Shown here piece after piece: positions 29,934 to 63,353 of a DNA stretch of 64,000 nucleotides. Every line of letters starts with the position of its first letter. Position 1 is the first letter of the stretch. Made by a program: the position numbers and the translations under genes. This stretch comes from a phage. A model generated the notes under the pieces. The model ran no database searches, had not been told where the DNA came from, and saw only the letters and a program-made list of their open reading frames with translations. The stretch lies in the sequence record OZ413489.1; one strand, written 5' to 3'.

Positions 29934-30271
29934 GTTTGTGGAGAAATATCGTTAACTACGTGTGCGGCAATCCAACTCCTGAAGAGAAGGATGTTGTGAT
30001 TCACGATTTTACTAAAAGATCTCGTGAAAAAGATCTACTGCTAACAAAGGTGACTGATAAAGATCCTGCAGTAGGGGACTGGGCAGGTTTTGCGTTTACA
30101 TCGGACAAATACACCTTTAACAAAGGTGACTACCTTGTTGTGGATTTTAACGAAGACATTGAGGGTGCTGAACCTTACTATCAAACCCTTATTGTTGCAG
30201 GGTGTGTTGATCTCTCTGCAGGCATGCACAGTTTGATTCTTTTTGAGCTTGACTCTGAAGACCTTGAGTAG
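29930..30271 (+). CDS. Hypothetical protein
   Basis: 113 aa; ATGA overlap with the helicase stop. Confidence 0.45.
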   Translation: MSLWRNIVNYVCGNPTPEEKDVVIHDFTKRSREKDLLLTKVTDKDPAVGDWAGFAFTSDKYTFNKGDYLVVDFNEDIEGAEPYYQTLIVAGCVDLSAGMHSLILFELDSEDLE

Positions 30272-30331
30272 TAAGATGTGAGTATAAAGGGGAGGCACTC
30301 CTCCCCACAAAAACTAAGGAAGCACTAAACG

Positions 30332-30634
30332 ATGAAACGTTATAAACCATACACTTTTGAAATCGATTTCGAACTTGACGATATGTTTACTGTGGAAGCT
30401 CAGGCAGTAGTTCAGTTGCCAGATCCGGAGTGCCGGGATTCTGATGTTGACTGTTACGGATTTAGACAAATCACCGATGTGCATGTTTACCACAACGGTG
30501 AAGAGGTGGACTTCCACCAACTGCCAAACGATATGCGCCACTCAATTTACAAACGTGCAGCCCGTGAACTAGAGTCCTATCTGGATGCAGCGACGACAGC
30601 AGCTGCATTTGCTGAAGAAGTGGGAGGTTTCTGA
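30332..30634 (+). CDS. Hypothetical protein
   Basis: 100 aa; RBS aaggaag. Confidence 0.45.
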   Translation: MKRYKPYTFEIDFELDDMFTVEAQAVVQLPDPECRDSDVDCYGFRQITDVHVYHNGEEVDFHQLPNDMRHSIYKRAARELESYLDAATTAAAFAEEVGGF

Positions 30635-45282: not shown

Positions 45283-45528
45283 ATGAACAAAGGGTGGACA
45301 TTTGTAGACGGCGTTAAAAACATGCCTCTAGGAAAGTATATTGTAGCCATGGCTGATGAGGATGGCAATGTGGATTTCGGAGCTTGCGAGGTTGTTCTTG
45401 CAGGATCTGGTAACTATGTGGACAAAACCGGGATAATTAACGGTCAGTTCTACTTTGATCACAACCCTGTTGTAGCGTATATGGCTATGCCAGAGTTTAA
45501 GTTCCCAAAGGATGGTGCTGATGTTTAA
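45283..45528 (+). CDS. Hypothetical protein
   Basis: 81 aa; RBS caggagat. Confidence 0.45.
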   Translation: MNKGWTFVDGVKNMPLGKYIVAMADEDGNVDFGACEVVLAGSGNYVDKTGIINGQFYFDHNPVVAYMAMPEFKFPKDGADV

Positions 45529-45718
45529 GCTTAAATCCGCATGGAGCATTGCTGTGGGTGATGAGATCCGTATCCCCGGTGGGAAGACCATTATGAAGAT
45601 ATCTCGTATTGAGTACGAAGGTGACCGTGTATTCCACATCTTCGCAGAAGATGGTCGAGAAATTTATATACAGGCAGGTTCTCACATTTATATCCGTAAG
45701 AAAGGGGACGACAAATGA
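45512..45718 (+). CDS. Hypothetical small protein
   Basis: 68 aa; overlaps neighbours at both ends. Confidence 0.4.
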   Translation: MVLMFKLKSAWSIAVGDEIRIPGGKTIMKISRIEYEGDRVFHIFAEDGREIYIQAGSHIYIRKKGDDK

Positions 45719-46044
45719 CAGAAATCATCATTTCAACTGCAGGGTATGTGTTCCTGACAATCATTGCACTGACTATTTTGGTGACAGTGTATGGGTTTGT
45801 TATCCTTCCTATCCTTGAGACATTTAGTTTGTGTCGGTGTTGGAGAAAAGCTTACGGTCCACAACCATGGAAGGACTGGCCCCACCTGGTGCGCTTAGCG
45901 TTCTCTTATGCTTACGATCACTCCAGTAGTGCATGCATAACCGGATACCACGCCCACAACTGGAGCTGGGAAGGGTTGAGGAAATGGAATGTTACAAAGA
46001 CCATACCTCTGCGCATGTACAAACCTAAAAACAAAGACAACTGA
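45715..46044 (+). CDS. Membrane protein
   Basis: 109 aa; N-terminal hydrophobic helix (GYVFLTIIALTILVTVYGFVILPIL). Confidence 0.5.
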   Translation: MTEIIISTAGYVFLTIIALTILVTVYGFVILPILETFSLCRCWRKAYGPQPWKDWPHLVRLAFSYAYDHSSSACITGYHAHNWSWEGLRKWNVTKTIPLRMYKPKNKDN

Positions 46045-46079
46045 TACTTGAAAATTCTTGGCATATCAAGTATAAGGGG

Positions 46080-46560
46080 GATTTCTAAAATGGATTTCCT
46101 CCTTTTGATATTTCACCGGGCCGGATATTTTAAAATTCTTAGAAAATCAGAAAATGGATCGAAAACTAAAATGGATTTTTCAGAGTAGGCGCGACAAGCT
46201 GAATAACTCATCCTATCGTTTGCACCATATTCCAGGCCACCATTATAGATTTCCCACACATGCTAACCTCCCTCTACTAGAACTTCCTCCACTTACCCTT
46301 GACCTTCTATGGTAACAATCTAACCGCTATCTTGAAGTTGCTGTGCAGCTTTCCAGGTACTCGATCTACTTTTCATTTCAGGGCTTGGATTTTCTGAAAA
46401 TTTTTCTCGATAAATTTCTCAGTACTCGATCTGTTTTTCGTTTTCTGAATCGGATTTTCTGGAAATCGTTCCGGCTCTCGACCTGAAATTTTTGGGGACG
46501 AAATCGATTTTTCGTTTTCAGAAATGGATTTTTAAAATTTCTATATGGGAATATTTTATG
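46080..46560. repeat. Iteron-rich AT-rich non-coding region (candidate origin / protein-binding array)
   Basis: Repeated words: aaaatggat(t/c) x4, gtactcgatct x2, ggattttctg(a/g)aaat x2, tttcgttttc x2; no convincing ORF. Confidence 0.5.
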
Positions 46561-46646
46561 GGATACTGTTTTATAGGAAATTGTTACGGAGGGTAATTAG
46601 CGTGCTAATTAAATTTATTAAATGCGAGGAGTTCTCATTTAGAATT

Positions 46647-46665
46647 TTGAATGATAATCATTCTC
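46647..46665. promoter_or_regulatory. Fur-box-like operator, copy A
   Basis: ttgAATGATAATCATTcTC: 15/19 to the Fur consensus GATAATGATAATCATTATC (15/16 over the core). Confidence 0.5.
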
Positions 46666-46677
46666 GTTTGCAGAATA

Positions 46678-46722
46678 ACGGGCAGGCCCGGTGATTGTCT
46701 CCCGGCCCCTACTGCCCCGGCT
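46678..46722 (+). other. Conserved hairpin element, copy A (core ggcaggcccggtgattgtctccc)
   Basis: GGGCAG-GCCCGG-loop-CCGGCCC-CTGCCC hairpin followed by ttgttatt; the 23-nt core recurs at 46822 and, inverted, at 54121. Confidence 0.4.
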
Positions 46723-46782
46723 TGTTATTATAGTATCACACAGGACAAAGAAAGCAAGGATTTTTTGCATAAATTTTTAAAT

Positions 46783-46801
46783 GATAATGATAACCGTTCT
46801 C
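46783..46801. promoter_or_regulatory. Fur-box-like operator, copy B
   Basis: GATAATGATAAcCgTTcTC: 16/19 to the Fur consensus; TTGCAT lies 16 bp upstream. Confidence 0.5.
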
Positions 46802-46807
46802 ATTTTA

Positions 46808-46858
46808 TGCAGCGCCCATCCCCGGTGGTTGTCTCCCCCGTCACCGGTGCCTGCCGTC
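46808..46858 (+). other. Conserved hairpin element, copy B (core ccggtggttgtctccc)
   Basis: CCGGTG...CACCGG stem around the loop gttgtctccccc; same core motif as copy A. Confidence 0.4.
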
Positions 46859-47060
46859 CTTTCGATAGGTATATCGTGCCACCTGGCGGGGCCGCTGTCA
46901 ACACTTTTCAAAAAATTTTTCTAACCTGATGCGCTAACCGCTGCAACCTGGCGGGGTCAGCCTGGCAGGACCTAACTGACCGGGTAGGAGAGAATGAAGG
47001 CTTGTAAACCTGGTGGGCCTATGCTACAGGATAGGTAACAATTGAAGAGGAGGTACAAAA

Positions 47061-47228
47061 ATGAAAGGTAATATGATCCCCCTAGAAAATGTAGCTATTA
47101 ATGACGCTGAGGCTATCGCCCTGGTTGAAAAGGCTATGGCGGGAGCGTTGGAACATAAAGAAGAGTACGAAAAATGGTGGTTAACCTGGCGGGGGCGGCA
47201 GGTGGATTCTATCATAAAAATAATTTAA
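47061..47228 (+). CDS. Small hypothetical protein (55 aa)
   Basis: Strong RBS gaagaggaggt, 7 nt before the ATG; not in the >=60 aa track. Confidence 0.45.
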   Translation: MKGNMIPLENVAINDAEAIALVEKAMAGALEHKEEYEKWWLTWRGRQVDSIIKII

Positions 47229-47235
47229 AATAGTC

Positions 47236-47265
47236 GTTGACAACAAGGTTAATCATGGTATTATT
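47236..47265 (+). promoter_or_regulatory. sigma70-type promoter
   Basis: TTGACA-17 bp-ATTATT (or TATTAT at an 18-bp spacer). Confidence 0.5.
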
Positions 47266-47314
47266 ACCCTACAAGGTGAACAACACCGCACTAACCAGTA
47301 AAGAGGATAAATTT

Positions 47315-47512
47315 ATGAACGCATACGGGATCAAAGTACGTCGCAACACTCGCCAGGTGGTCACCAATCAAGTGATTTGCCGGGTGGATGTAACCATCAA
47401 CAACGGGCAAGGCCTTTATAAATTTCGTCGCGGTCATAGCTATACCCTGCAACAGCTTAATCGTTGCGCCCTGACAAAAGGTCAGATCAACCATTGGTTT
47501 AATAAAAAATAA
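47315..47512 (+). CDS. Hypothetical small basic protein
   Basis: Track ORF 47237-47512 begins inside the promoter; ATG at 47315 with RBS aaagaggat. Confidence 0.45.
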   Translation: MNAYGIKVRRNTRQVVTNQVICRVDVTINNGQGLYKFRRGHSYTLQQLNRCALTKGQINHWFNKK

Positions 47513-47515
47513 GTA

Positions 47516-47544
47516 TTGACATACAGTCCGACACCAAATACACT
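47516..47544 (+). promoter_or_regulatory. sigma70-type promoter
   Basis: TTGACA-17 bp-TACACT. Confidence 0.5.
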
Positions 47545-47576
47545 AAAAGCACAAAAGACACTAAGAGGATAAAATC

Positions 47577-47975
47577 ATGAAAACCACTACCTTTAATTTT
47601 GATAATGCAGACTTTTCTTTTTCTGATGTCAAGAACTGCCGCCGTGATCGTGGATTTTACAAGGCTTATAATCTGGTGGGCCTGGACGATGACAATAATT
47701 TGCACGAAGTAGCTGAGATCCGGTATTATGCCGCCGCCAGCGGTAACACTAACTACTGCGTTTTTTGGATACACGACAACAAGAACAATAAGTACGGTTA
47801 TACTGGTGGCAAGGCTAGCGGTCACGGTTATGATAAAGCCAACGCTGCACTTGAAAGCGCATTAAATGCCATGGGAATCACTGCCGACGGCTGGATCTAT
47901 GAAGAAGAGTTTTTGGCGGCACTTGCTGCCCACCTGGGCTATAAAAAGCACATTGTAACATGCGCCCACGAATAA
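47577..47975 (+). CDS. Hypothetical protein
   Basis: 132 aa; RBS taagaggat. Confidence 0.5.
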   Translation: MKTTTFNFDNADFSFSDVKNCRRDRGFYKAYNLVGLDDDNNLHEVAEIRYYAAASGNTNYCVFWIHDNKNNKYGYTGGKASGHGYDKANAALESALNAMGITADGWIYEEEFLAALAAHLGYKKHIVTCAHE

Positions 47976-47986
47976 AAAAAAAATTA

Positions 47987-48014
47987 TTGACACGCTGCAA
48001 AATTCAAGTAAACT
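47987..48014 (+). promoter_or_regulatory. sigma70-type promoter
   Basis: TTGACA-16 bp-TAAACT, followed by a 5'-UTR hairpin. Confidence 0.5.
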
Positions 48015-48024
48015 AGGCACAAAA

Positions 48025-48043
48025 GGCGGGAATGTTTCCCGCC
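48025..48043 (+). promoter_or_regulatory. 5'-UTR stem-loop
   Basis: ggcggg-aatgttt-cccgcc between the promoter and the RBS of 48063. Confidence 0.45.
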
Positions 48044-48062
48044 AACACGAAGGAAAAAGATC

Positions 48063-48458
48063 ATGAATAAAAACGTACGCCGCATCATGAACGAACTGGC
48101 AAACGATGAAAAAATTATTGATATGCATTTGGTCAACATTTGCCGCCGTTGTGTAACATATAACAACCGCGCCGCAAAAGCGCGTGAGATGAACGCAAAA
48201 GGCACCTTAAAGCCCTTTCAGGTGGTTGTAAAATCTATGACCAGTGCAGCAGGCCAGGCGCATGACCACAACAACGGGAGCACTAATATTGATCCATCTT
48301 ACGTAATGAAACGGATCCGGACTTGCAAGAATAAAGAGCAGGTGTATAACGTCATAGATTGGCTGGACTCCCTGGGTGACGTGGTTTACAATAGGTTTTC
48401 TGCAGCTATTGAAATTCAGTTAGACAGGTTGGACGGGAAAGTACTGAAAACTTACTGA
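48063..48458 (+). CDS. Hypothetical protein
   Basis: 131 aa; RBS aaggaaaaag. Confidence 0.5.
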   Translation: MNKNVRRIMNELANDEKIIDMHLVNICRRCVTYNNRAAKAREMNAKGTLKPFQVVVKSMTSAAGQAHDHNNGSTNIDPSYVMKRIRTCKNKEQVYNVIDWLDSLGDVVYNRFSAAIEIQLDRLDGKVLKTY

Positions 48459-48460
48459 GT

Positions 48461-48506
48461 TTATTTTTAGATGGCCTTGACTCCAGGGCCATCAATAAAG
48501 TAAACT
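48461..48506 (+). promoter_or_regulatory. Repeated 46-bp promoter/palindrome element, copy 1
   Basis: ttatttttaGATGGCCttgactccaGGGCCATCaataaagtaaact: a TTGACT -35 inside an inverted repeat, TAAACT at -10 spacing; near-identical copies at 49089 and 52803. Confidence 0.5.
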
Positions 48507-48538
48507 AATCCCAGTTAAGCGAAAAAGGAGGCTTGAAG

Positions 48539-48658
48539 ATGAGCACTACACGCCAGCACACAAAGGTAACTATTATCGTTTGCATCATTGGTTATATCCT
48601 GGCGCAAATGTTGATGGGTAGCGCTAACGGTGTCGCAAAATTTTTCTTAAACTTTTAA
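48539..48658 (+). CDS. Small hydrophobic peptide (39 aa)
   Basis: RBS aaaggagg, 8 nt before the ATG; one predicted TM helix (TIIVCIIGYILAQMLMG). Confidence 0.45.
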   Translation: MSTTRQHTKVTIIVCIIGYILAQMLMGSANGVAKFFLNF

Positions 48659-48686
48659 TTGACAAGCTAACTTAGATCAGTATACT
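48659..48686 (+). promoter_or_regulatory. sigma70-type promoter
   Basis: TTGACA-16 bp-TATACT. Confidence 0.55.
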
Positions 48687-48698
48687 AAACACATAAAC

Positions 48699-48711
48699 GG
48701 GAAAACTTCCC
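48699..48711 (+). promoter_or_regulatory. 5'-UTR stem-loop
   Basis: ggg-aaaactt-ccc between the promoter and RBS aaaggagaaaac. Confidence 0.4.
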
Positions 48712-48735
48712 AGAACACCAAAAGGAGAAAACATT

Positions 48736-49086
48736 ATGAATACTTCCATCACTATGACCGCCGAAGAAAAAGCCCTGCAGATCGCCGCTCTGAAAAAACA
48801 GATTGCAGAACTTGAAGACAAGATCGACAATTTTGAAATCGACGAAGACAAATACGACGATAAATATGATGAATGGTTGGACGAGATCTACGGCGAAATT
48901 ATGATCGGAAACATTTCTTTTCTTCCGTCGCGTATCCTCAAGGAGCTAGATCCTATCGCTTACCGCTGCGGATTTAGCGACTACATCGACAGCCTGGATA
49001 TTGAGGACGATGAAGAATACCAGGAATTGCAGACAGAGCTTGAAGAAGTGAAAGAAGAGCTTGCAGAACTGGAAGAAAACGAGTAA
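48736..49086 (+). CDS. Hypothetical acidic coiled-coil protein
   Basis: 116 aa; heptad-like N and C termini; very acidic. Confidence 0.5.
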   Translation: MNTSITMTAEEKALQIAALKKQIAELEDKIDNFEIDEDKYDDKYDEWLDEIYGEIMIGNISFLPSRILKELDPIAYRCGFSDYIDSLDIEDDEEYQELQTELEEVKEELAELEENE

Positions 49087-49088
49087 GA

Positions 49089-49134
49089 TTATTTTTAGAT
49101 GGCCTTGACTCCAGGGCCATCAATAAAGTAAACT
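49089..49134 (+). promoter_or_regulatory. Repeated 46-bp promoter/palindrome element, copy 2
   Basis: Identical core to copy 1, directly after the stop at 49086. Confidence 0.5.
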
Positions 49135-49175
49135 TTATACTGTTAACACTGAACTAATGCATAGGAGTTAAAACC

Positions 49176-49421
49176 ATGGCAGCACTAATCACCAAATATT
49201 ATGCCCCTACCAACACCAAAAGCGCCCGTATCATGGTAAAAGGCTTCGGACGTAAAAAGGTTTACACTTGGGATTATTCCCTAGACATGGAAGACAACTA
49301 CACCAACGCGATGACCGATTTTATTAATGAACTAAATAAGCAGATCTTAACCAATTATAAGGTGACCGACATCGCCTATGTTGGGGAAGGTGGGATCTGT
49401 TTTGTCGGTATTGTCAAATAA
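49176..49421 (+). CDS. Hypothetical protein
   Basis: 81 aa; RBS ataggagtt. Confidence 0.5.
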   Translation: MAALITKYYAPTNTKSARIMVKGFGRKKVYTWDYSLDMEDNYTNAMTDFINELNKQILTNYKVTDIAYVGEGGICFVGIVK

Positions 49422-49496
49422 GCTGTTTTTTCGGTGGTCCTGGTGGCAGGGCCATCTATAAAGATAGTTTATTAACACCATGAAAGGAGAAAGTAC

Positions 49497-49850
49497 ATGA
49501 TCAGCGGGGCTAGTTTTATTATTGGCGCTATTGCTACAGCTTTAATTGTAAACAAGATCCAGGATAAAAAGGAAAGAGGAAGTACCGCCCTTGCAGAATA
49601 TCCATTTTGGACATTCAACGATAACGAAGATTATATTATAAAGTATAAAAATAAAGAAGGTGACCAAGTAACACCGCGACCGATCCCGGCTTACAAGATG
49701 CAGGAAACACTATACCGCTTGGAGGCAGGGGGCGCAAAAATTGTGGACTTTTGGGGATACGATCACACAGATCAGGAAGTTATAAAGCGCCGTATCCGGG
49801 CTATTCAGGCCAATATTGAAGTTAGCAAGGGGGGAATATATGAAGATTAA
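49497..49850 (+). CDS. Hypothetical protein with N-terminal hydrophobic segment
   Basis: 117 aa; RBS aaaggagaaag; N-terminal TM-like helix. Confidence 0.5.
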   Translation: MISGASFIIGAIATALIVNKIQDKKERGSTALAEYPFWTFNDNEDYIIKYKNKEGDQVTPRPIPAYKMQETLYRLEAGGAKIVDFWGYDHTDQEVIKRRIRAIQANIEVSKGGIYED

Positions 49851-50037
49851 TTTTGAGAAAATTGTAAAGCGATCTCATGATTCCGAAGAGCTGCCGGAAC
49901 GCCGCCAGCGTAACAATAAACTGAATAAGCCAAAAAGATTTGGGAAGATCTGGCGGAATCATTATGATCGTAAATTGCCGGGCCTCCTTTTGGAACGTGA
50001 ACGGCAGGCGGAACGATACCGCCACAAAGGCAACTAA
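49840..50037 (+). CDS. Hypothetical small basic protein
   Basis: Track ORF from 49816; ATG at 49840 after RBS aagggggg. Confidence 0.4.
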   Translation: MKINFEKIVKRSHDSEELPERRQRNNKLNKPKRFGKIWRNHYDRKLPGLLLERERQAERYRHKGN

Positions 50038-50044
50038 CAACCAA

Positions 50045-50073
50045 CGCCCCGCCATCGTGCGGGGCTTTTTATT
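50045..50073 (+). terminator. Rho-independent terminator
   Basis: gccccgc-catcgt-gcggggc + tttttattt. Confidence 0.75.
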
Positions 50074-50195
50074 TCTACCCTACGAATAGCGCCCCTGGTT
50101 GGCCCCACAACGCCCTAAAAGCCCCCTACCCATGCAATCCCATTTCTTAACCTGAAAACATCGTCAAAGGCTGTTTTAAAGCGTTAAAAATATTG

Positions 50196-50223
50196 TTGAC
50201 ATCTAAAATATTCTAGATATACT
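50196..50223 (+). promoter_or_regulatory. sigma70-type promoter
   Basis: TTGACA-16 bp-TATACT. Confidence 0.55.
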
Positions 50224-50258
50224 AATCACATCAAAGCGAGAAGTAAGGAGTAAACGCC

Positions 50259-50519
50259 ATGCGTAAATTAAAAAATTTTGATAAAGTTGATATTGTCCTG
50301 AATAATTTTTACTACTGCAATAACAAGGCCGTTTGGTGGCGTGATAGTTCCACCGATAAAGTCAAGGCGCGCTTTCTCCAGGGGCACTGGCAAGGCCGCC
50401 CAGTGATTAAAATCATGGGGCAATTGGTAGCGTTTAAAAATTGCCGCCGTGTTGATGACGTTGAAGAGATTTTAAACATTTTGCGCCACAATAATTTAAA
50501 AAATAGTGTTGACAAGTAA
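50259..50519 (+). CDS. Hypothetical protein
   Basis: 86 aa; RBS taaggagtaaac. Confidence 0.5.
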   Translation: MRKLKNFDKVDIVLNNFYYCNNKAVWWRDSSTDKVKARFLQGHWQGRPVIKIMGQLVAFKNCRRVDDVEEILNILRHNNLKNSVDK

Positions 50520-50536
50520 ATCTCAATAAGTATAAT
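50509..50536 (+). promoter_or_regulatory. sigma70-type promoter
   Basis: TTGACA-16 bp-TATAAT overlapping the stop of 50259-50519. Confidence 0.6.
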
Positions 50537-50546
50537 TAAAAACACA

Positions 50547-50565
50547 GGCGGGAAAACTTCCCGCC
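50547..50565 (+). promoter_or_regulatory. 5'-UTR stem-loop
   Basis: ggcggg-aaaactt-cccgcc, then RBS acaggagaaaat. Confidence 0.45.
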
Positions 50566-50593
50566 ACTAACAAAGAAAACAGGAGAAAATATC

Positions 50594-51217
50594 ATGACCA
50601 CCGTTAACATTACCACAGGTTACAATTTATCTTTCGACGTGCTGACCGACGAACAAAAAGAAAAAGCCGTGGAAATGGTCCGCGAAAGAGAAGAACACAG
50701 CGGGGATAACTTTTTTGCAGAAAGTGTAATTGAGTACTATAAAGAATATGTTTTTCCAGAGTACGGCCTTGAAGATACCGATGTACATTGGTCAGGCTTT
50801 TGGTGCCAGGGTGACGGCGCGTCAATCAGTGCGGAAAACGTGGATTTAGAAAAATTCTTGCGTAAAGTCAAGTCTCTGACTAAATTCCGCTCAATTCGTC
50901 ACTTGTTCGGCACAATGCACGATGGCGAGTTATCCGCAAGTGTTGAGCGTGATCCATATAGCCGCTATAGTCACGAAAACACTGTAAACGGATACATCGA
51001 TACTACATGGCTAGACCTGACCACCAAACAAGAAAACAAAGTGGAAGATCTGGAAGAGCTGATCACCGAGACGGTACGGGAGTTATCCCGCAAGGTTTAC
51101 GTAGACCTGGAGGAGGCCTATCTTGAACAATTCACCGCCGAAAACTTGATCGGCCTTATCGAGGCCAATGATTGGCGGTTTGATGTCGATGAACACGGTA
51201 AGATGACTTTTTCATAA
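50594..51217 (+). CDS. Hypothetical protein
   Basis: 207 aa. Confidence 0.55.
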   Translation: MTTVNITTGYNLSFDVLTDEQKEKAVEMVREREEHSGDNFFAESVIEYYKEYVFPEYGLEDTDVHWSGFWCQGDGASISAENVDLEKFLRKVKSLTKFRSIRHLFGTMHDGELSASVERDPYSRYSHENTVNGYIDTTWLDLTTKQENKVEDLEELITETVRELSRKVYVDLEEAYLEQFTAENLIGLIEANDWRFDVDEHGKMTFS

Positions 51218-51225
51218 ATAAAGTG

Positions 51226-51253
51226 TTGCAATAACCTAAAAACCTGCTATATT
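51226..51253 (+). promoter_or_regulatory. sigma70-type promoter
   Basis: TTGCAA-16 bp-TATATT, followed by a 5'-UTR hairpin. Confidence 0.45.
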
Positions 51254-51262
51254 AAAACTCAA

Positions 51263-51281
51263 GGGGCAAGACGTTTGCCCC
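51263..51281 (+). promoter_or_regulatory. 5'-UTR stem-loop
   Basis: ggggcaa-gacgt-ttgcccc, then RBS aaagaggtaaac. Confidence 0.45.
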
Positions 51282-51305
51282 ACACAAAACAAAGAGGTAA
51301 ACATT

Positions 51306-51686
51306 ATGAAAAACACTACTAAAGCTATTGACACCGTTATGTTTAACCTGGTTACATTCCGTGAAGATATGAAAGATCTTCCACGTGAAACAGTGTGCGA
51401 TCACATTGAAAACTATCGCAAACTAATCAAAGAGTTGCCTTTAAAACGTGACCAGTATGCGGCTAACGCTATGCTTAACGCCATGATCAAAAAGATGATT
51501 CAGTGTGATTTAACTCTGGCCTATGATTATGCAGGTGGTCGTTTTGCAGTATACAATCAGCCCGTGCCTGGTATGAGCACCACCGAAGAATTGCACGCGT
51601 TAAATCTGAAACAAGATGTATGGGATAACATGCCCCGCGTGGTGGTGTGGGCAGAAAGCGGAAAGATTTACGGCGATAATTTTTAA
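51306..51686 (+). CDS. Hypothetical protein
   Basis: 126 aa. Confidence 0.5.
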   Translation: MKNTTKAIDTVMFNLVTFREDMKDLPRETVCDHIENYRKLIKELPLKRDQYAANAMLNAMIKKMIQCDLTLAYDYAGGRFAVYNQPVPGMSTTEELHALNLKQDVWDNMPRVVVWAESGKIYGDNF

Positions 51687-51696
51687 TCAGGTAACA

Positions 51697-51722
51697 GGCG
51701 GCATATTTGCCGCCTTATTGTT
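51697..51722 (+). terminator. Rho-independent terminator
   Basis: ggcggc-atattt-gccgcc + ttattg. Confidence 0.55.
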
Positions 51723-51750
51723 AAACAGAACTGCAAAAGAGGTACATAGA

Positions 51751-52122
51751 ATGGAATTTATTATTTTGGCTGTAGTAGTTGCCTTGTTCAACGCCTGGAT
51801 CGCTGGCAAGATAGGTAGATCCGCTTTTCTATGGTTTGTTATATCTATTTTCCTGGGAGTGGTTGCAACTATTGTATTGGTTATCCTTGCAATTGTTGAC
51901 AAGGGCGATAATAGAAAGGGTAAAGTGTTTTCCGACCTGTATGACGCACAAACGTTTGTCAACGCCTATTATAGTGATCTTCCAGTCTCCCTACGCTGCA
52001 GCCTGGCACAACAGGTTTTTGATGAGGCTAAAACCAGAGACCAAGCCCATGAGATATGTTTAACTGAAGCGGATCGCCTATTTGAGAGGAATAGAAAATA
52101 TGTGGACCAGCCGTTTAAATAA
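51751..52122 (+). CDS. Membrane protein (two predicted TM helices)
   Basis: Track ORF from 51616 overlaps the upstream gene and terminator; ATG at 51751 follows RBS aaaagaggtac; begins MEFIILAVVVALFNAWIAG. Confidence 0.5.
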   Translation: MEFIILAVVVALFNAWIAGKIGRSAFLWFVISIFLGVVATIVLVILAIVDKGDNRKGKVFSDLYDAQTFVNAYYSDLPVSLRCSLAQQVFDEAKTRDQAHEICLTEADRLFERNRKYVDQPFK

Positions 52123-52321
52123 CGCCACGTTAATTAATCCCTTTAGTGAAGATTTGAAGCCAGCCGCCTGGCGTGACGGATTCAATAACGAACGCTTTAT
52201 TTTCAGGCCTGATCTTGAGGAATTTTATAACAATGGATCGAACAACAGCGGAGATAATTTTTCTTGTGGTGTGCGTGGTGATAGGACTCCTGGGGGCCAT
52301 TGTAAACCACGTCACTACTAA
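52100..52321 (+). CDS. Hypothetical small protein (uncertain frame)
   Basis: ATG with RBS gagaggaa; overlaps an alternative-frame peptide (52233-52358) that has a clear TM helix, so one of the two is probably spurious. Confidence 0.3.
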   Translation: MWTSRLNNATLINPFSEDLKPAAWRDGFNNERFIFRPDLEEFYNNGSNNSGDNFSCGVRGDRTPGGHCKPRHY

Positions 52322-52341
52322 CAGGAGGGAAGGGGGAGACG

Positions 52342-52461
52342 ATGACAACCAAAGATAAGCCATGCGCTGATAAGGTGCGCCGTGTTATGGTATGGCTTGA
52401 GATTATCGCCCTTGAAATATTGTTAGGCGTAGGGATGTACTTTATCGCTGTAAGTAACTAA
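52342..52461 (+). CDS. Small hydrophobic peptide (39 aa)
   Basis: RBS gggggaga before the ATG; TM helix VMVWLEIIALEILLGVGMYFIAV; terminator follows. Confidence 0.45.
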   Translation: MTTKDKPCADKVRRVMVWLEIIALEILLGVGMYFIAVSN

Positions 52462-52463
52462 GA

Positions 52464-52496
52464 GCGGCCCCCGATCATGGGGGCCTATCTTTTAAA
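52464..52496 (+). terminator. Rho-independent terminator
   Basis: ggccccc-gatcat-gggggcc + tatcttttaaaaaattttt. Confidence 0.65.
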
Positions 52497-52515
52497 AAAT
52501 TTTTCTTCCGGGGTG

Positions 52516-52544
52516 TTGCAATCCGGTCCGGAATGTGGATAATA
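52516..52544 (+). promoter_or_regulatory. sigma70-type promoter
   Basis: TTGCAA-17 bp-ATAATA; the -10 region contains TGTGGATAA. Confidence 0.5.
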
Positions 52545-52599
52545 ACAATCAACGGGGAGCTAATCCCCACCACCACAAAAACCAGAAAGGAGAAACAAA

Positions 52600-52800
52600 A
52601 TGAGCAACAATATCCGCGTTATTAACTTCAAAAAAGAAGAAAAAATTGCCGTGCTGATTGACGGTCAAGAAATCTTCAAGGGCGACTATGAAGATCATCA
52701 AACGGCGATTAGTATCACTCGCGTGATTGGTTATCATAATTTCTACCCCCAAGGCGCTGAGGCAGCAGTTAAACGAATCAAAGAGATTGTAGGCCTGTAA
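52600..52800 (+). CDS. Hypothetical small protein
   Basis: 66 aa; RBS aaaggagaaac. Confidence 0.5.
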   Translation: MSNNIRVINFKKEEKIAVLIDGQEIFKGDYEDHQTAISITRVIGYHNFYPQGAEAAVKRIKEIVGL

Positions 52801-52802
52801 AA

Positions 52803-52848
52803 TTTATTTTTAGATGGCCTTGACTTCAGGGCCATCGATAAAGTAAAT
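52803..52848 (+). promoter_or_regulatory. Repeated 46-bp promoter/palindrome element, copy 3
   Basis: aatttatttttagatggccttgacttcagggccatcgataaagtaaatt; two substitutions relative to copies 1 and 2. Confidence 0.5.
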
Positions 52849-52893
52849 TTAAACCCTGTTAAAATACCACGCAGTTAACAAGGAGTGATAGAC

Positions 52894-53193
52894 ATGTTTA
52901 TCCAGGCTAATAATCTTTATTTCTTTGATGGTCAGATCGTAGATGGTGTGGAAGTGGAGATCACCGGGTGCCCTGGCGGTCAGGCTATGACTTTTCGGAA
53001 TAATGCCTTTGATGATTCTCATATCGTTATAAGAATGGAAGTTACGAAGCTGGACGACAAGAAAACACTTATTGACTATTCTGTGAAAGATCATCCAGAC
53101 TACCGCATGATCCATGGTGATTTGTGCATTGTTGACCGTGACAAGGTGGGCGGCATTGTGATCGCTATTGTGAACGATGTTTTCTCAAACTAA
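52894..53193 (+). CDS. Hypothetical protein
   Basis: Track ORF from 52885; in-frame ATG about 9 nt in, after RBS aacaaggagtg. Confidence 0.5.
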   Translation: MFIQANNLYFFDGQIVDGVEVEITGCPGGQAMTFRNNAFDDSHIVIRMEVTKLDDKKTLIDYSVKDHPDYRMIHGDLCIVDRDKVGGIVIAIVNDVFSN

Positions 53194-53210
53194 TTTCAGC
53201 AGGCGATTTT

Positions 53211-53561
53211 ATGAAAGTCAAACTATATTACCTTAATGAGCTTAACCCCCTTGCCCAGGTCCGCGCCCTAGCTAATACCTTGATTTGTGAGAAATCTGTA
53301 TATTGTGTTGAGCTTAACGCCATGCGTGAACGTCTCAAAGGTGGTTACTTTGACATCCATGCTGCAATCAACGGCCTGAATATGGAATTTATACGCTTAC
53401 GTAACAGCCGCCGGAATCTGGCAAGAATGGAACAAGATCCGGCCCACCTTCGTAAACTGGTTATTGAAAATCATCTGATGTTTAATGCCGAGGGGGATTA
53501 TTACCATTTTCACCGCAAACGCTGGTACCGTGGCGGCAATACAGGCAAGAATGCAAAATAA
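53211..53561 (+). CDS. Hypothetical basic protein
   Basis: 116 aa ORF. Confidence 0.5.
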   Translation: MKVKLYYLNELNPLAQVRALANTLICEKSVYCVELNAMRERLKGGYFDIHAAINGLNMEFIRLRNSRRNLARMEQDPAHLRKLVIENHLMFNAEGDYYHFHRKRWYRGGNTGKNAK

Positions 53562-53597
53562 GGCCCCTAGCAGGGCCTGCAGCAATATAATCACATA

Positions 53598-53631
53598 AAG
53601 GCCATGCGGTTGCATGGCCTTTATTATTTTG
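53598..53631 (+). terminator. Rho-independent terminator
   Basis: aaaggccatgc-ggtt-gcatggccttt + attatttt. Confidence 0.7.
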
Positions 53632-53678
53632 GCGTTACAACGGCATACGGGGCGCTTAAAAAATTTTTAAAGAAGTAC

Positions 53679-53707
53679 TTGCATCATTCCCGACAATATG
53701 GATAATA
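53679..53707 (+). promoter_or_regulatory. sigma70-type promoter
   Basis: TTGCAT-17 bp-ATAATA; same -10 context (tgGATAATAa) as the promoter at 52516. Confidence 0.5.
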
Positions 53708-53770
53708 AGAGTTGTCGAGGGGGAGGCCCCCAATCGTTGACCAGATAGATAGGAGTTAAAATCATGGCTA

Positions 53771-54034
53771 TTGTTACCGCTGGCTATCTTCAAAGATGCG
53801 GAAGCAAAACAACGCCGGATCTCAATACATGAGATCATCAACCTTAACGCTGGAGGCACACCATACCGCCCAGGACCTGGCCGTGAGATGGACAATACGC
53901 TAGCGATCCTGAAGATACGCCGTAAACGGTCCTCCCTTACTCTGGACTCATTACACACAATGCAGCCTCCGTTCCAGGTGACCGGGAAACGGATCGCCAG
54001 GTCCTGGACAAAGGCCAATGATCGGACCGTATAA
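53771..54034 (+). CDS. Possible gene with aberrant start (candidate frameshifted gene or non-coding transcript)
   Basis: 87-codon ORF with only a TTG start; a well-placed RBS (taggagttaaaatc) precedes an ATG at about 53764 in another frame that stops after 22 codons. Confidence 0.25.
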   Translation: MLPLAIFKDAEAKQRRISIHEIINLNAGGTPYRPGPGREMDNTLAILKIRRKRSSLTLDSLHTMQPPFQVTGKRIARSWTKANDRTV

Positions 54035-54120
54035 ATAAAAGTGTTTTGGTACTGATTTTGGGGTTGACTTGTTCGGCCCCTTTTGCTATTCTTATTAAAC
54101 GGGCGGCACTTGGGAACAGG

Positions 54121-54143
54121 GGGAGACAATCACCGGGCCTGCC
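54121..54143 (-). other. Conserved hairpin-core motif, copy C (inverted)
   Basis: Minus-strand ggcaggcccggtgattgtctccc, identical over 23 nt to copy A at 46681. Confidence 0.4.
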
Positions 54144-54168
54144 TGTCATATAAGAACTATAAAAACCG

Positions 54169-54197
54169 TTGACATCTGCCATGGGGTGGGGTAACAT
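54169..54197 (+). promoter_or_regulatory. sigma70-type promoter
   Basis: TTGACA-17 bp-TAACAT upstream of 54252. Confidence 0.45.
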
Positions 54198-54251
54198 TTA
54201 TCTTGAAGGGGCAAAAGTGCCCACACAACAACCAAGAGAGAGGAAAACACT

Positions 54252-54524
54252 ATGTCAAACTGGATTAATCAAGAAGTCGAATCACGTTTTAATGCTATTT
54301 GGGATCTCATCGAAAAAGAAGACGGCACATCAAGCCCCTACCTCAACAATTTGGAATTCCATTTTGTGGAAGCGATGAACGCAGAACATGATCACGAAGG
54401 TGGCGCGGATGAGTTCGCTAAAGGTTATGGCTTTAACAATGCCAACGAAATGATCGAGGCGGTAGTACTCCAGGCTGAGGAAGATTATCAACTAAAAACG
54501 CTTGAATTCTGCCGCCGCAAGTAA
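54252..54524 (+). CDS. Hypothetical acidic protein
   Basis: 90 aa; RBS agagagaggaaaac. Confidence 0.5.
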   Translation: MSNWINQEVESRFNAIWDLIEKEDGTSSPYLNNLEFHFVEAMNAEHDHEGGADEFAKGYGFNNANEMIEAVVLQAEEDYQLKTLEFCRRK

Positions 54525-54530
54525 TAAGAT
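54502..54530 (+). promoter_or_regulatory. sigma70-type promoter
   Basis: TTGAAT-17 bp-TAAGAT at the end of the upstream gene; a 5'-UTR hairpin gggccaaaaggccc (about 54539-54552) follows. Confidence 0.45.
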
Positions 54531-54584
54531 AATGACACGGGCCAAAAGGCCCACTAATCAGAACCGCACAAAGAGGTAAACATC

Positions 54585-54848
54585 ATGAAACGTCTTGATC
54601 AGCTCAAATTAGTTCAATATATGGCTTATCGTGTTCTTGAAGTCCAGAAAGGTAGCAAAAAAGAGGTTTGCGAGAAAGCTTATAAGATCTTCACTCGCAA
54701 AAAAGATGACTGGATGCTACGCCAGACTAAAAAGGCTGACATCTTGGGGTACCTGGAAGAAGAGATCCGCCTTGAAGAGCAAGAAGAGATCCGCCGTAGT
54801 GAGGCAGATTATCAGGCAGCTTGGGAAAACTGGATGAGCAACAAATAA
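54585..54848 (+). CDS. Hypothetical protein
   Basis: 87 aa; RBS aaagaggtaaac; last plus-strand gene before the non-coding region. Confidence 0.5.
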   Translation: MKRLDQLKLVQYMAYRVLEVQKGSKKEVCEKAYKIFTRKKDDWMLRQTKKADILGYLEEEIRLEEQEEIRRSEADYQAAWENWMSNK

Positions 54849-54867
54849 TACAACAAGGTGCACGGTC

Positions 54868-54893
54868 AGGGGCTTAAAGCCCCTTTCTTTTTG
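54868..54893 (+). terminator. Rho-independent terminator
   Basis: aggggc-ttaa-agcccct + ttctttttgtct. Confidence 0.75.
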
Positions 54894-55770
54894 TCTCCTC
54901 TTTTCCTACCACAAATGGCCCCGCCTGGCAAATGGAATAATCAACAAGCCAGCAATTAACCCCACTGTACAAACATACATATAAAATAACTATTGCATAA
55001 TTTTTCATTGTGTGGTAGCAGTGCCATTTTTACACGTTTTTCCTTCCAAAATTGCACGTAATGCAGCATTTGCACAAAATTTAACCTGATGCATATCTTC
55101 AATAGCTTGTCAACAACTAAAAATCTTTATAAGTCATACACTTACATAACTACAAAAACGTTTTCTACGTGAAAAATCGAGTATAACTATAGCCGCCAGA
55201 TCTCAGAATTTACGTACGCTCGCCATTCTATAGCCTGCTAAGCATTTATTCCAACCATAGAATAACGGAATAGTCAATACCTGCATAAAATAATTATTCG
55301 TGTAAACTGCATAACATAAATCGGCCCAGGTGTCAACATTTTTCGTAAACAGTCTGGAATTGTCACGTTAGGTTACCATAAGCAGAGAAATCTTTAGTCG
55401 TCTAATGTTTACTGTACATTACTATACTGACTGGAATCATTAGATGACTAAGAGAAAGATAAGAAATAATTAATAATGTAATTATTTTACCTGTAACAAT
55501 AAGGCAACTATGCAAACGAATGGCATGGCGCGACGGAGTCGCGACATAATATAAAAGCAGTAACCATCACCCCCGTGATAGTTTGTCTGCAAACTATTAA
55601 TCAGATCATAGTTGCCTTGTATTTAGTTAATCATGACATGACAAGCAAGGCAACTATAGATCTGCTAATAGTTGCCCTGCTTTTATATTATGTCATGCTA
55701 ATTATAATCAGTGCGATTATTGTCATGTATAATTATTGTCATGCAAACGAATGGCATGGCTGATTATCGG

Positions 55771-55860
55771 TGTGTAAACAGTCAATCATGTAAATGGTTA
55801 GCATGTGAACAATCAGGAATGTAAACAATCCAGTGTGTAAACTAATAGGTGTGTAAAAGT
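55771..55860. repeat. TGTAAAC-type iteron cluster
   Basis: gtgtaaaca, atgtaaatg, atgtaaaca, gtgtaaact, gtgtaaaag within about 90 bp. Confidence 0.45.
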
Positions 55861-56001
55861 GTCATGTTGTGTCAGTTAGGTCACATTATGTCAGACAAGT
55901 TTTTCTCCTCTTTGTCAAGTGCTGCATGAAAAATTTACAAGCTTGTATGGTAGCATTTTTGCGGCCCTGTTTACATTCAGTAATGTATGTATAATCCTTG
56001 T

Positions 56002-56165
56002 TGTGTGGGCGTTTAGACGTCTAGACGGTTGGAAGTCCACAGGTCAATATCTAATCTATCGGCTGCTAACTATATCCCACACATGTGTGGGCGTTTAGAC
56101 GTCTAGACGGTTGGAAGTCCACAGGTCAATATCTAATCTATCGGCTGCTAACTATATCCCACACA
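56002..56165. repeat. Perfect tandem duplication, 2 x 82 bp
   Basis: The unit tgtgtgggcgtttagacgtctagacggttggaagtccacaggtcaatatctaatctatcggctgctaactatatcccaca occurs twice head-to-tail with no mismatch seen; each copy contains the palindrome TAGACGTCTA; the junction forms CCCACACATGTGTGGG. Confidence 0.8.
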
Positions 56166-57461
56166 AATAGTAAGAAATATGATTGTTATATGCGTAAACT
56201 GTAACTCATGTTATCAATCCCTGTATGGATCGCCAGTGGTGCGCATAATAGGTATTATGTTAAATTGCCCGTAATGATAACAGTTCTCACAATGATAGGT
56301 ATTCTCATTCATCCACACAAAATAGGTTGCAAATGTTGTGCCACTGTGTGAACGGCCTGGCCTATTAATTTCTCTCACTGCCTCGATATTTGAGAATTGT
56401 TATAAGAATGAGAAGTATTCCCATTCCGTCCGCCTGGCAGCACTCCTGTAGGTCCTGCAAGGACTCTAGCTGAAAGCTAGACCCTTCGGGCCTCCCTGTA
56501 GGTCAGGTCAAAATCGTGGTAGAATTGGGCCTGTTCAGATATTTCTGGCTGACTCTTCAGGTCTGTGTGGGAAAAGCCAACCTCTCCGGCGGGGCAGGGG
56601 GTCATGACGGGAAAATTGCAGGTCAATTAAAAAATTTACGTGGTGTATGAAGCGCTCTTCAGGTAAGGCATGTATTATGGGATGAAACCCTCTTCAGGCA
56701 ATGATATTTGTGGGTGTGATATTTGCTGGAAAGCCAGATATGACGGGACTCCCGGCGGGGATGGGGTAGTACAGACAGGGAAAATATGAGAATGTAGTTG
56801 GGGAAATTGATCAGACAGGTAGAGTATGGAATATGTTACAAGTATGTTAAATATGGAGGTTGAATATCTGTAGGATTTGTGTGTAAAATCAAAGACTTAA
56901 GGGGTGTTGTGGTATTTTCTATAAATAATTCAAGTTTAATAGGCAATATTTGTCTCTATCCGCTTTGTGTGGTAAACAGATTCAGATTAGATTGGTTTAC
57001 AAGTGTATACATAATATACAAATTAAAGATACAAGAAACCCCCCTCCCCCTTCGGCTACCATTCACCTTTTCCTCTGACTGGTACTTAAACACTTATTCA
57101 GACTCTTCAGGTTATCACCCATATATCATATGGCAGTGACTGGTGTCCTCCGGCCCCTCTTTCGTCACCCGTCCGCTTCGCCATGCTAATGCCATAGCCA
57201 ATGGTTCGGTTGTTCACTCTGTTCACTCAGGTGTATCTCCATACCCCTTCAAACCGAAGAGAACAGAAAACCCGAATTACTCGGTAAAAGAAAAGAGAAG
57301 AACTTAATTTTATCAGGATAGGCAAGAATGTCAAGGCATGACTGCTCACTAAACAAGCAAACAGTCATGTGTGGAAGGTAAGTGATTGTGGTGGTGGGAA
57401 ATTTAGTTGAAAGATGTGTTATAGGTGCTCCCAGCACTTTAGCCGGGTAGCTAATTGTGTG

Positions 57462-62958: not shown

Positions 62959-63276
62959 TCATTCTCCAAAGTCAATCTTTACTTTGCCTTTCCCCTTACC
63001 TTTCTTTCCACCGCATTTAGCCAGCTGACGTGCTGCAACATCTACCATACGGTCAGTTGCCTCGTAAGCATCACTGCCTTTAGCCTTGGCAATAACTTCT
63101 TTTCCAGAATTGTCAAAAATGAACGCCATAACTTCCTGGTGATCATTTTCAACTTTTACACTCACACGTGCATAGTTGGCAGAGGGATGCAAACGCTCCA
63201 ACTTAGACATTTTGTGGGAAATGAAAGACACCATACCTTCAGTGATTTCTACGTTGCCAGTGATTTCAATTTGCAT
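62959..63276 (-). CDS. hpf: Ribosome hibernation promoting factor / RaiA-like (short HPF family)
   Basis: 105 aa; aligns along its length with short HPF/YfiA proteins (MQIEITGNVEITEG ... VSVKVE ... AKAKGSDAYEATDRMVDVAARQLAK); Lys/Gly-rich tail. Confidence 0.7.
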   Translation of the reverse strand: MQIEITGNVEITEGMVSFISHKMSKLERLHPSANYARVSVKVENDHQEVMAFIFDNSGKEVIAKAKGSDAYEATDRMVDVAARQLAKCGGKKGKGKGKVKIDFGE

Positions 63277-63323
63277 AACGTGTTCCTTTTAAAGAAGAGG
63301 GAACCGAACCCTCTTTGAAAACA

Positions 63324-63353
63324 ATGATACTAAATCTGAAGCGTTGTGTCAAC
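63324..63353 (-). promoter_or_regulatory. sigma70-type promoter for the HPF-like gene
   Basis: Minus-strand reading TTGACA-17 bp-TATCAT, then 5'-UTR hairpin agagggttcggttccctct and RBS aaaaggaac. Confidence 0.55.

Follow-up and report, generated by a model that had tools for sequence, protein, structure and literature searches.

Promoter-phased leader hairpins of an rV5-like coliphage: PeSL-type cassettes that may protect the 5' ends of early mRNAs

Promoter-early stem-loops (PeSLs) have been described in the T4-like phages RB49, phi1, PST and nt-1 (Arbiol et al. 2010, PMC2839356; Comeau et al. 2014, PMC4122927), in which they form repeated cassettes ahead of ORFans in hyperplastic regions and are proposed to be terminators of upstream transcription and mediators of modular shuffling (PMC2839356, PMC4122927). 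In this study, we found that a phage DNA of 64,000 nucleotides (sequence record OZ413489.1; hereafter the window, with positions counted from its first letter) contains a series of cassettes in which a sigma70-like promoter is followed, at a nearly fixed distance, by a short GC hairpin in the 5' untranslated region of a small gene. These cassettes are a variant of the PeSL type, set apart by the placement of the hairpin and by the phage group. Here we describe their architecture, their promoter phasing, the purifying selection on their stems and their recurrence in other lineages, and we propose that the hairpin may cap, and so protect, the 5' ends of short early mRNAs.

In the phi10 leader of T7 gene 10, a hairpin that begins at the transcript start with its G-run first (GGGAGACC...GGTTTCCC) is followed by an unstructured leader and a strong Shine-Dalgarno sequence (SD); this leader is in wide use, stabilises mRNA and raises expression. 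The leaders of the window are like it in having a 5' hairpin with the G-run first and then an unstructured leader with an SD, whereas T7 gene 10 differs in being a late gene transcribed by T7 RNA polymerase from a phage promoter, and in having a U-rich enhancer rather than an A/C-rich spacer. Among the 5' stem-loop stabilisers of E. coli, those of the ompA and papA leaders (Emory, Bouvet and Belasco 1992, reviewed in PMC3997798) block RppH and 5'-end-dependent RNase E, and the requirement of both enzymes for single-stranded 5' ends is the accepted reason for stabilisation by 5' hairpins in this bacterium (PMC3997798). Unlike the one long structured leader of ompA or papA, the window has short generic hairpins on many phage genes, for which we infer a stabilising effect.

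With the PeSLs, the cassettes of the window share an AT-rich stretch, a sigma70 consensus promoter, a stem-loop made of a G-run and a C-run, an SD and an ATG, as well as their repetition ahead of small, functionally uncharacterised genes in a plastic region and, in part, the location of indel junctions between close relatives on cassettes. However, the PeSL phages belong to the Straboviridae, whereas the layout reported here is found in Vequintavirinae and also in phi92-like and 121Q-like phages. In the region of phi1 that was scanned, the stem-loops lie between or over the promoter boxes, as in the commonest PeSL subclasses, with 0 of 21 leaders having one 6-14 nt past the -10 box, whereas the hairpins of the window are fixed at that place and predicted to be fully transcribed, which corresponds only to the rarest named PeSL subclass, 'downstream of the -10' (Arbiol et al. 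2010, PMC2839356). Furthermore, the PeSL authors read their elements as terminators or attenuators, whereas the hairpins of the window have no U-tracts. Stabilisation by 5' hairpins and PeSL cassettes are thus both already known in principle, and it is the placement and the phage group that are new. A preliminary description of this region missed the modular repetition of the PeSL type (PMC2839356), along with a second class of cassettes in the same region.

The order of elements in each cassette is an A/T-rich stretch, a sigma70-like promoter, 8-12 nt of A-rich sequence, a GC hairpin, an A/C-rich spacer, an SD and an ATG. The hairpin has a perfectly paired stem, 4-8 bp long, that starts 8-12 nt past the -10 box, and its loop measures 3-5 nt. 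The promoters, which are consensus predictions, have 8-12 of 12 consensus matches and spacers of 16-17 nt, and A- and T-runs lie immediately upstream of the -35 box of every cassette; six of these promoters were predicted independently in Table S4 of the rV5 paper (Kropinski et al., PMC3606486). Nine clean cassettes are located at 47.2-54.6 kb and one at 30.2 kb, in addition to a partial one at a gene for a protein similar to hibernation promoting factor (HPF). Five leaders (ATG at 48063, 48736, 50594, 51306 and 54585) had been said to share a -10 element, a short GC stem-loop, an A/C-rich spacer, a ribosome-binding site (RBS) and an ATG, and this layout is present in all five; the leaders of ATG 47315, 52600, 53764 and 54252 in the same stretch, and of ATG 30332 elsewhere, join them. 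Two of the hairpins had also been called nearly identical, and indeed those at 48025-48043 and 50547-50565 share 8-bp stems (GGCGGGAA/TTCCCGCC) and differ in the 3-nt loop alone. The cassettes are given below with the predicted promoter, hairpin, spacer, SD and ATG, with the fold energy and its z-score where available, and with the variation among orthologs; L006 and similar labels denote individual compared sequences.

47237..47317, plus strand: cassette 1; promoter TTGACA-16-TATTAT at 47237-47264 (P195A of the rV5 paper), hairpin GGTG-aacaa-CACC at 47275-47287, spacer and SD, ATG 47315; the weakest of the hairpins (-4.8 kcal/mol, z -0.8), preserved in 9 orthologs, with U·G in L006.
47987..48065, plus strand: cassette 2; promoter TTGACA-16-TAAACT at 47987-48014 (rV5 P194), hairpin GGCGGGAA-tgt-TTCCCGCC at 48025-48043, spacer aacacg, SD aagga, ATG 48063; -14.6 kcal/mol, z -3.2, with the stem invariant and the loop variable among orthologs.
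48659..48738, plus strand: cassette 3; promoter TTGACA-16-TATACT at 48659-48686 (rV5 P192), hairpin GGGAA-aac-TTCCC at 48699-48711, A/C spacer, SD aaggag, ATG 48736; -5.8 kcal/mol, z -1.5, the same cassette being found in the phi92-like phage KKE7M.
50509..50596, plus strand: cassette 4; promoter TTGACA-16-TATAAT at 50509-50536 (rV5 P185), hairpin GGCGGGAA-aac-TTCCCGCC at 50547-50565, A/C spacer, SD aggag, ATG 50594; -14.6 kcal/mol, z -4.7, with a U·G variant in L006.
51226..51308, plus strand: cassette 5; promoter TTGCAA-16-TATATT at 51226-51253, hairpin GGGGCAA-gacgt-TTGCCCC at 51263-51281, spacer acacaaaacaa, SD agagg, ATG 51306; -12.6 kcal/mol, z -3.2, with the stem re-registered with G·U pairs in L013, L014 and L015.
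52516..52602, plus strand: cassette 6; promoter TTGCAA-16-GATAAT at 52516-52543, hairpin GGGGA-gctaa-TCCCC at 52554-52568, A/C spacer, SD aaggag, ATG 52600; -9.5 kcal/mol, with a canonical terminator upstream at 52466-52485, and with a loop variable in size and sequence among orthologs and a stem lengthened to GGGGAG/CTCCCC in L013 and L026.
53679..53766, plus strand: cassette 7; promoter TTGCAT-16-GATAAT at 53679-53706, hairpin GGGGG-agg-CCCCC at 53719-53731, spacer, SD aggag, ATG 53764; whole-leader z-score not significant, with a canonical terminator upstream at 53595-53624.
54169..54254, plus strand: cassette 8; promoter TTGACA-17-TAACAT at 54169-54197 (rV5 P168), hairpin GGGCA-aaag-TGCCC at 54209-54222, spacer acacaacaaccaagaga, SD gagg, ATG 54252; -9.5 kcal/mol, with a terminator-like hairpin upstream at 54060-54080.
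54502..54587, plus strand: cassette 9; weak promoter TTGAAT-17-TAAGAT at 54502-54530 (8/12), hairpin GGGCC-aaaa-GGCCC at 54539-54552, spacer, SD agagg, ATG 54585; -12.6 kcal/mol, z -3.0, with the loop changing from AAAA to GGGA among orthologs and the stem unchanged.
30249..30334, plus strand: the cassette outside the range first reported; promoter TTGACT-17-TAAGAT at 30249-30277, hairpin GGGGAGG-cact-CCTCCCC at 30289-30306, spacer acaaaaact, SD aagga, ATG 30332; -14.1 kcal/mol, z -3.1.

Among the 30 promoter-gene pairs of the 64-kb window with at least 9 of 12 promoter matches, a hairpin whose stem starts 7-13 nt past the -10 box is present in 10, versus 0.61 ± 0.75 (maximum 4) in 1000 dinucleotide shuffles of the same leaders. 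One of these ten hits, at 59011 on the minus strand, was dropped because it proved to be an ordinary bidirectional terminator that ends in TTTTT and has a weak promoter match ahead of it; the window has a strong bidirectional terminator, AAAGAGGGG-N8-CCCCTCTTT, at 59037-59062, with T-runs on both strands. The distance from the -10 box to the stem is 10.3 ± 1.25 nt and that from the stem to the ATG is 27.1 ± 4.2 nt, and the difference between these standard deviations indicates that the hairpin is tied to the promoter and not to the RBS. The spacer consists of 55% A, 27% C, 10% G and 8% T (n=141), compared with 29/21/23/27 for the window (T depletion, P=1e-8). Leaders with a hairpin are 47-58 nt long and those without are 28-36 nt long, and, given this difference of ~20 nt, the hairpin resembles an insertion into a leader plan that both groups share; the promoters lacking a hairpin have the same kind of A/C-rich leader. 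In all 10 members the G-rich arm comes first, as compared to 105:104 among all hairpins of the window. The G-run-first order was rejected as evidence for the strand, since an inverted repeat is identical on both strands and the order shows only a preference for one type of hairpin. In RNA folds of the predicted transcripts, the hairpin lies 2-6 nt from the 5' end and the SD is unpaired, with minimum free energies of -4.8 to -14.6 kcal/mol and z-scores of -2.9 or lower in 6 of 11 leaders. No Rfam 15 family was found at gathering score at 44000-64000 of the window, where the one sub-threshold chance match was to RF03091 (33.5 bits of the 94.4 needed, E 0.42).

Selection was assessed on the orthologous leaders of the nine cassettes, pooled over 12 Vequintavirus genomes, with leaders taken from genomes and metagenome contigs; a search of IMG/VR and metagenomes for further orthologous leaders gave only six more usable loci. 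The mean pairwise difference is 0.000 for the -35 box, 0.027 for the -10 box, 0.029 for the stems, 0.057 for the coding starts, 0.10-0.12 for other non-coding positions and 0.18 for the loops, and 13% of the stem columns are variable as compared to 51% of the loop columns (stems versus neutral columns, Fisher P=1.7e-5; G/C columns only, P=3.6e-8). The stems are under purifying selection, and the loops are drifting. Across orthologs the hairpin survives replacement of the loop (TGT to ACA, AAAA to GGGA), extension of the stem and its re-registering, with few losses of a single pair, so what selection conserves appears to be the pairing rather than the sequence. The non-Watson-Crick cells comprise 10 G·U, from ~5 independent events, versus 2 A·C, from 1 real event; as G·U pairs can form on the sense strand only, this bias points to pairing being kept on the sense strand. 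One pair of cassette 7 is G:C in five genomes, G·U in four and A:U in one. Covariation in related phages had been proposed as a check, and in the family of cassette 7, the most variable one, all cells are indeed paired, but there is only one double-sided change, which is not significant (242/500 shuffles).

The same layout is present in other phages. In Av-05 (Avunavirus), the ortholog of gene 50594 has a promoter, a gap of 11 nt, a different stem (GGCG/CGCC) and an A/C spacer. A hairpin 6-14 nt past the -10 box is found in 12 of 19 leaders in an 11-kb stretch of the phi92-like KKE7M, many of which are GGCGGGAAA-tgg-TTTCCCGCC, and in 4 of 9 leaders of 121Q, 7 of 17 of Murica and 3 of 12 of Av-05, where the shuffle means for these four phages are 0.4-0.6. 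Near-identical cassettes occur in many copies in KKE7M and are common to 121Q, and the core GCGGGAA-N3-TTCCCGC recurs behind early promoters of Vequintavirus, KKE7M and 121Q. The use of this core as a diagnostic signature was abandoned, as an IMG/VR pattern scan for GCGGGAANNNTTCCCGC gave at least 120 unrelated contigs with single copies. A short-query blastn search of phage genomes with one cassette matched Vequintavirus only. Av-05 (L002) also has, at ~7340-7400 and 11580-11640, hairpins of the form TATGCCGTG-atagaatg-CACGGCATA with the -10 box in the loop, which are another PeSL-like subclass.

E. coli RNA polymerase usually starts 6-8 nt past the -10 box. With stems that begin 8-12 nt past it, the hairpin would therefore be the first structure of the mRNA, and, given standard start spacing, the stem is predicted to start at about +2 to +6 of the transcript, as also in the phi92-like, 121Q-like and Av-05 phages, and to leave 1-6 nt unpaired at the 5' end. 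Such a 5'-terminal hairpin would leave too few unpaired nucleotides for RppH and for 5'-end-dependent entry of RNase E. RNase E prefers U-rich single-stranded sites, and a U-poor spacer is a poor target; the single-stranded spacer behind the hairpin would thus offer few RNase E sites, and would also keep the SD open. As a result, short monocistronic early mRNAs would be stabilised and translated well, and the same hairpin might also act as a barrier to 3' exonucleases on read-through transcripts of the upstream gene. We infer the transcription start site, the stabilisation and the RNases involved from this arrangement, and give the proposal that a 5'-terminal hairpin protects these mRNAs, which has the best support among the mechanisms considered, a probability of about 0.5. 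The preliminary description had suggested that the hairpins are either 5'-end stabilisers or RNase processing sites. The former fits the phasing, the selection on the stems, the sense-strand wobble, the absence of U-tracts and the U-poor spacer, but the latter found no support. RNase III needs a long double-stranded stem of about two helical turns, for which stems of 4-8 bp are too short, and the U-poor single-stranded spacer is the opposite of an RNase E site.

Several points weigh against protection of 5' ends. A literature search on rV5-like phages found no mapped transcription starts, 5' ends, transcriptomes or half-lives. The promoter-linked hairpins of phi1, and those of a second class of cassettes in the window with the -35 box in the loop (described below), sit where capping of the 5' end is impossible, which suggests another or an additional function, for instance in insulation or recombination. 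In the relative ECP32, gene 54585 has an ortholog whose leader is hairpin-less, which means that expression does not require the hairpin. Taken one by one, the hairpins at 47275, 48699 and 53719 are weak, and three hairpins have z between -0.8 and +0.25. Finally, strict covariation is thin, amounting to the single double-sided change of cassette 7, and G·T is tolerated in single-stranded DNA too, so that the wobble bias is no strict proof of RNA structure.

It is unlikely that the hairpins serve, as in the original reading of the PeSLs, as terminators or attenuators which damp upstream transcription so that each small gene is driven by its own promoter only. They do resemble intrinsic terminators in their GC-rich stem of 5-8 bp and short loop, and some public annotations say so: the vB_Eco_Alma record labels both GGCGGGAA hairpins, those of cassettes 2 and 4, 'terminator'. 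In addition, in 6 of 9 cassettes nothing else structured lies between the stop codon upstream and the gene that follows. A phi1 stem-loop placed between a promoter and lacZ cut expression like rrnB T1 (PMC2839356), but the stem-loop tested precedes TTATAATA, and this result is not transferable to hairpins that are followed by 0-3 T in the 8 nt past each stem, whereas the region's canonical terminators have at least 5. The sense tails read AACACGAA, AGAACACC, ACTAACAA, ACACAAAA, ACCACCAC and similar. Unlike intrinsic terminators, moreover, these hairpins are placed behind a promoter and just ahead of an RBS, where termination would abort the cassette's own transcript. A terminator scan of the plus strand called none of the cassette hairpins, the search by the rV5 authors lists the canonical terminators of the region and none of these hairpins, and cassettes 6, 7 and 8 lie right behind strong canonical terminators. 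Considering the absence of U-tracts and the position of three of them just downstream of canonical terminators, the cassette hairpins are, to judge from their sequences, poor sense terminators. The terminator-like hairpin upstream of cassette 8, GGGGTTGACTTGTTCGGCCCC followed by TTTTGC (54060-54092), has TTGACT in its loop and TATTCT 17 nt on, and it looks like a composite of terminator and promoter.

The second class of cassettes is a 49-nt repeat, whose copies are as follows.

48458-48506: 49-nt repeat, directly after a stop codon.
49086-49134: 49-nt repeat, directly after a stop codon.
52801-52849: 49-nt repeat, directly after a stop codon.
49421-49469: diverged copy of the 49-nt repeat, directly after a stop codon.

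This repeat contains the hairpin GATGGCC-ttgactccag-GGCCATC, whose loop carries a TTGACT that resembles a -35 box. It has TAAACT 18 nt later and no U-tract, and it looks like the PeSL subclass 'stem-loop over the -35'. Two of its copies are annotated as terminators in the Murica record. ECP32 (L015, 1501-1561) lacks 48507-49074 of the window, 568 bp comprising two genes as well as cassette 3. The gap falls precisely between two of the repeat copies, and the difference is best described as a cassette-to-cassette deletion or insertion. At 50196-50201, the metagenomic relative L006 has 564 extra bp at the TTGACA (-35) of promoter 50196; at 54561-54575, an additional gene interrupts the cassette 9 spacer in ECP32 and Mangalyan; and at 54866-54885, in the terminator hairpin AGGGGCTTAAAGCCCCT, the window is without ~540 bp present in Murica. 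Other junctions, at 53776-53784 and 47013/47183, lie away from cassettes. Considering these junctions, together with the repetition of promoter, hairpin and SD-ATG modules within the region and the near-identical cassettes of KKE7M and 121Q, the cassettes could serve recombination as modules of homology and have no RNA function themselves, in which case the hairpin would act at the DNA level and the blocks would persist through gain, loss and exchange of small genes. We regard this as quite unlikely as the whole explanation, although it is compatible with 5'-end protection and does not exclude it. The junctions fall mostly on the other class of cassettes, on promoters and on terminators, and none of those found lies between two 5'-UTR hairpins. 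Furthermore, selection has acted on pairing and not on sequence identity, as re-registered stems and G·U intermediates indicate, and the fixed phasing of 8-12 nt and the sense-strand wobble bias would be left unexplained.

A third alternative is that a phage or host factor binds the hairpin, either in the RNA or as the DNA palindrome that spans +3 to +22, and switches early genes off or marks phage mRNAs. The recurrence of the core in three phage groups, and the G-run-first order of all members against the even split of hairpins window-wide, would speak for such recognition. However, stem sequence, stem length (4-8 bp) and loop (3-5 nt, with no consensus) differ within one genome, the loops evolve fastest, single copies of the 14-base core are widespread in unrelated viral contigs, and exchange or duplication of cassettes can account for the shared core. 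A comparable element, boxB of lambdoid nut sites, has a conserved GNRA-like loop of 5 nt that is bound by N protein, and has boxA as a partner. The cassettes of the window are like boxB in having a small promoter-proximal hairpin on early phage transcripts, but their loops are variable in both length and sequence and evolve fastest, every gene is driven from a promoter of its own, and no boxA-like element was seen. Recognition of this kind is very unlikely, and just as improbable is its extension to a shared 'self' tag, in which the hairpin would go beyond a generic 5' cap and the core GCGGGAA-N3-TTCCCGC on the early mRNAs of rV5-like, phi92-like and 121Q-like phages, spread on mobile promoter cassettes, would let a host or phage factor spare or time these mRNAs during destruction of host mRNA.

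We give as little credence to a role in translation, in which the hairpin would be an insulator or standby platform, walling the A/C-rich landing region of the ribosome off from upstream RNA and so keeping the RBS open on the gene's own transcripts and on read-through transcripts. The SD is unpaired in all predicted folds, the spacer is poor in G and U and thus offers few pairing partners, and hairpin-less promoters share the same kind of leader. This last observation cuts both ways, as hairpin-less leaders of the same composition indicate that the hairpin is unnecessary for an open RBS, and the loose distance to the ATG (standard deviation 4.2 nt) beside the tight one to the -10 box (1.25 nt) speaks against an insulator. 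That the hairpins are antisense terminators, whose minus-strand reading would put the T-rich complement of the A-rich start region after the stem and stop convergent transcripts, is hardly credible. In its favour, five of the hairpins (48043, 48712, 50565, 51281 and 52572) were picked up, weakly, as terminator-like when the consensus scan was read on the minus strand. Against it, half of the minus-strand tails are poor (e.g. TCGACAAC, CTTCAAGA and GTGTCATT), the plus-strand G·U variants would be A·C mismatches there, the convergent units already end at strong terminators near 54.87 kb and 59.04 kb, and nine copies would be redundant.

The partial member is located on the other strand.

63274..63352, minus strand: HPF-like gene; promoter TTGACA-17-TATCAT at 63352-63324, hairpin AAGAGGG-ttcggtt-CCCTCTT at 63315-63295, ATG 63276.

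This gene had been said to have the same design. Its promoter, which is P144 of rV5, and its hairpin (-9.9 kcal/mol, z -0.9) are present, but the hairpin is followed by a U-rich CUUCUUUAAAA (cuuuaaaa) and not by an A/C spacer. The product (62959-63276, minus strand) matches PF02482 (E 1.8e-12) and is a ribosome hibernation protein of the S30AE type. With its own promoter, a leader hairpin and a U-rich tract, the gene could be controlled by an attenuator.

At 47.5-55.2 kb, the window shares 93-97% identity with over 100 rV5-like coliphages (genus Vequintavirus), and on this similarity it is assigned to an rV5-like coliphage. The plus-strand genes across 44-55 kb are small; they make up the distal part of rV5's long leftward unit, in which Kropinski et al. 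(PMC3606486) predicted many sigma70 promoters and described no leader hairpins. Nine of these genes were tested, and their products match only PHROGs of unknown function and have no Pfam domains; the same holds for the genes behind the cassettes, which encode proteins of 66-207 aa. This early region is plastic, with several indels between genomes of 93% identity. The open reading frame at 53764 (53764-54034) stops after ~22 codons, and at its junction (53776-53784) ~2.2 kb of Murica, inoa and rV5_ev168 is missing from the window, where the first codons are fused to the interior of another gene. Some database records related to this region are unusual. About 20 GenBank records MG0656xx named 'Campylobacter phage' have ~93% identity to the coliphage group over 47200-55200 of the window, the 'Enterococcus phage heks' record has a 77%-identical copy of gene 51306, and an 'Acinetobacter phage' record has a 71%-identical copy; the host labels or the purity of these records look doubtful.

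T4 Srd stimulates RNase E. A homolog of rV5 gp11, termed Srd-like in the rV5 paper, is encoded at 22279-23255 of the window (minus strand); it has no Pfam match, and among PHROGs it matches 'HNH endonuclease' (1.8e-109), 'decoy of host sigma70' (2.6e-12) and Srd (5e-9). A link between Srd and the hairpins through this protein was dropped, as the Srd match is too weak in comparison with that to the HNH PHROG.

If the hairpins cap 5' ends, the cassettes would be ready-made parts for expression design in E. coli, and the public 'terminator' labels on some of the hairpins could be corrected. The finding would also revise the sole published interpretation of promoter-linked stem-loops, which is that they are terminators, and would extend PeSL-type cassettes beyond the T4-like phages. 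For the phages themselves, it would mean that large lytic coliphages give dozens of host-takeover genes one compact and portable expression unit, with a strong host promoter joined to a hairpin that protects the 5' end, a nuclease-poor, ribosome-friendly spacer and an RBS, which would help account for strong early expression from very short mRNAs.

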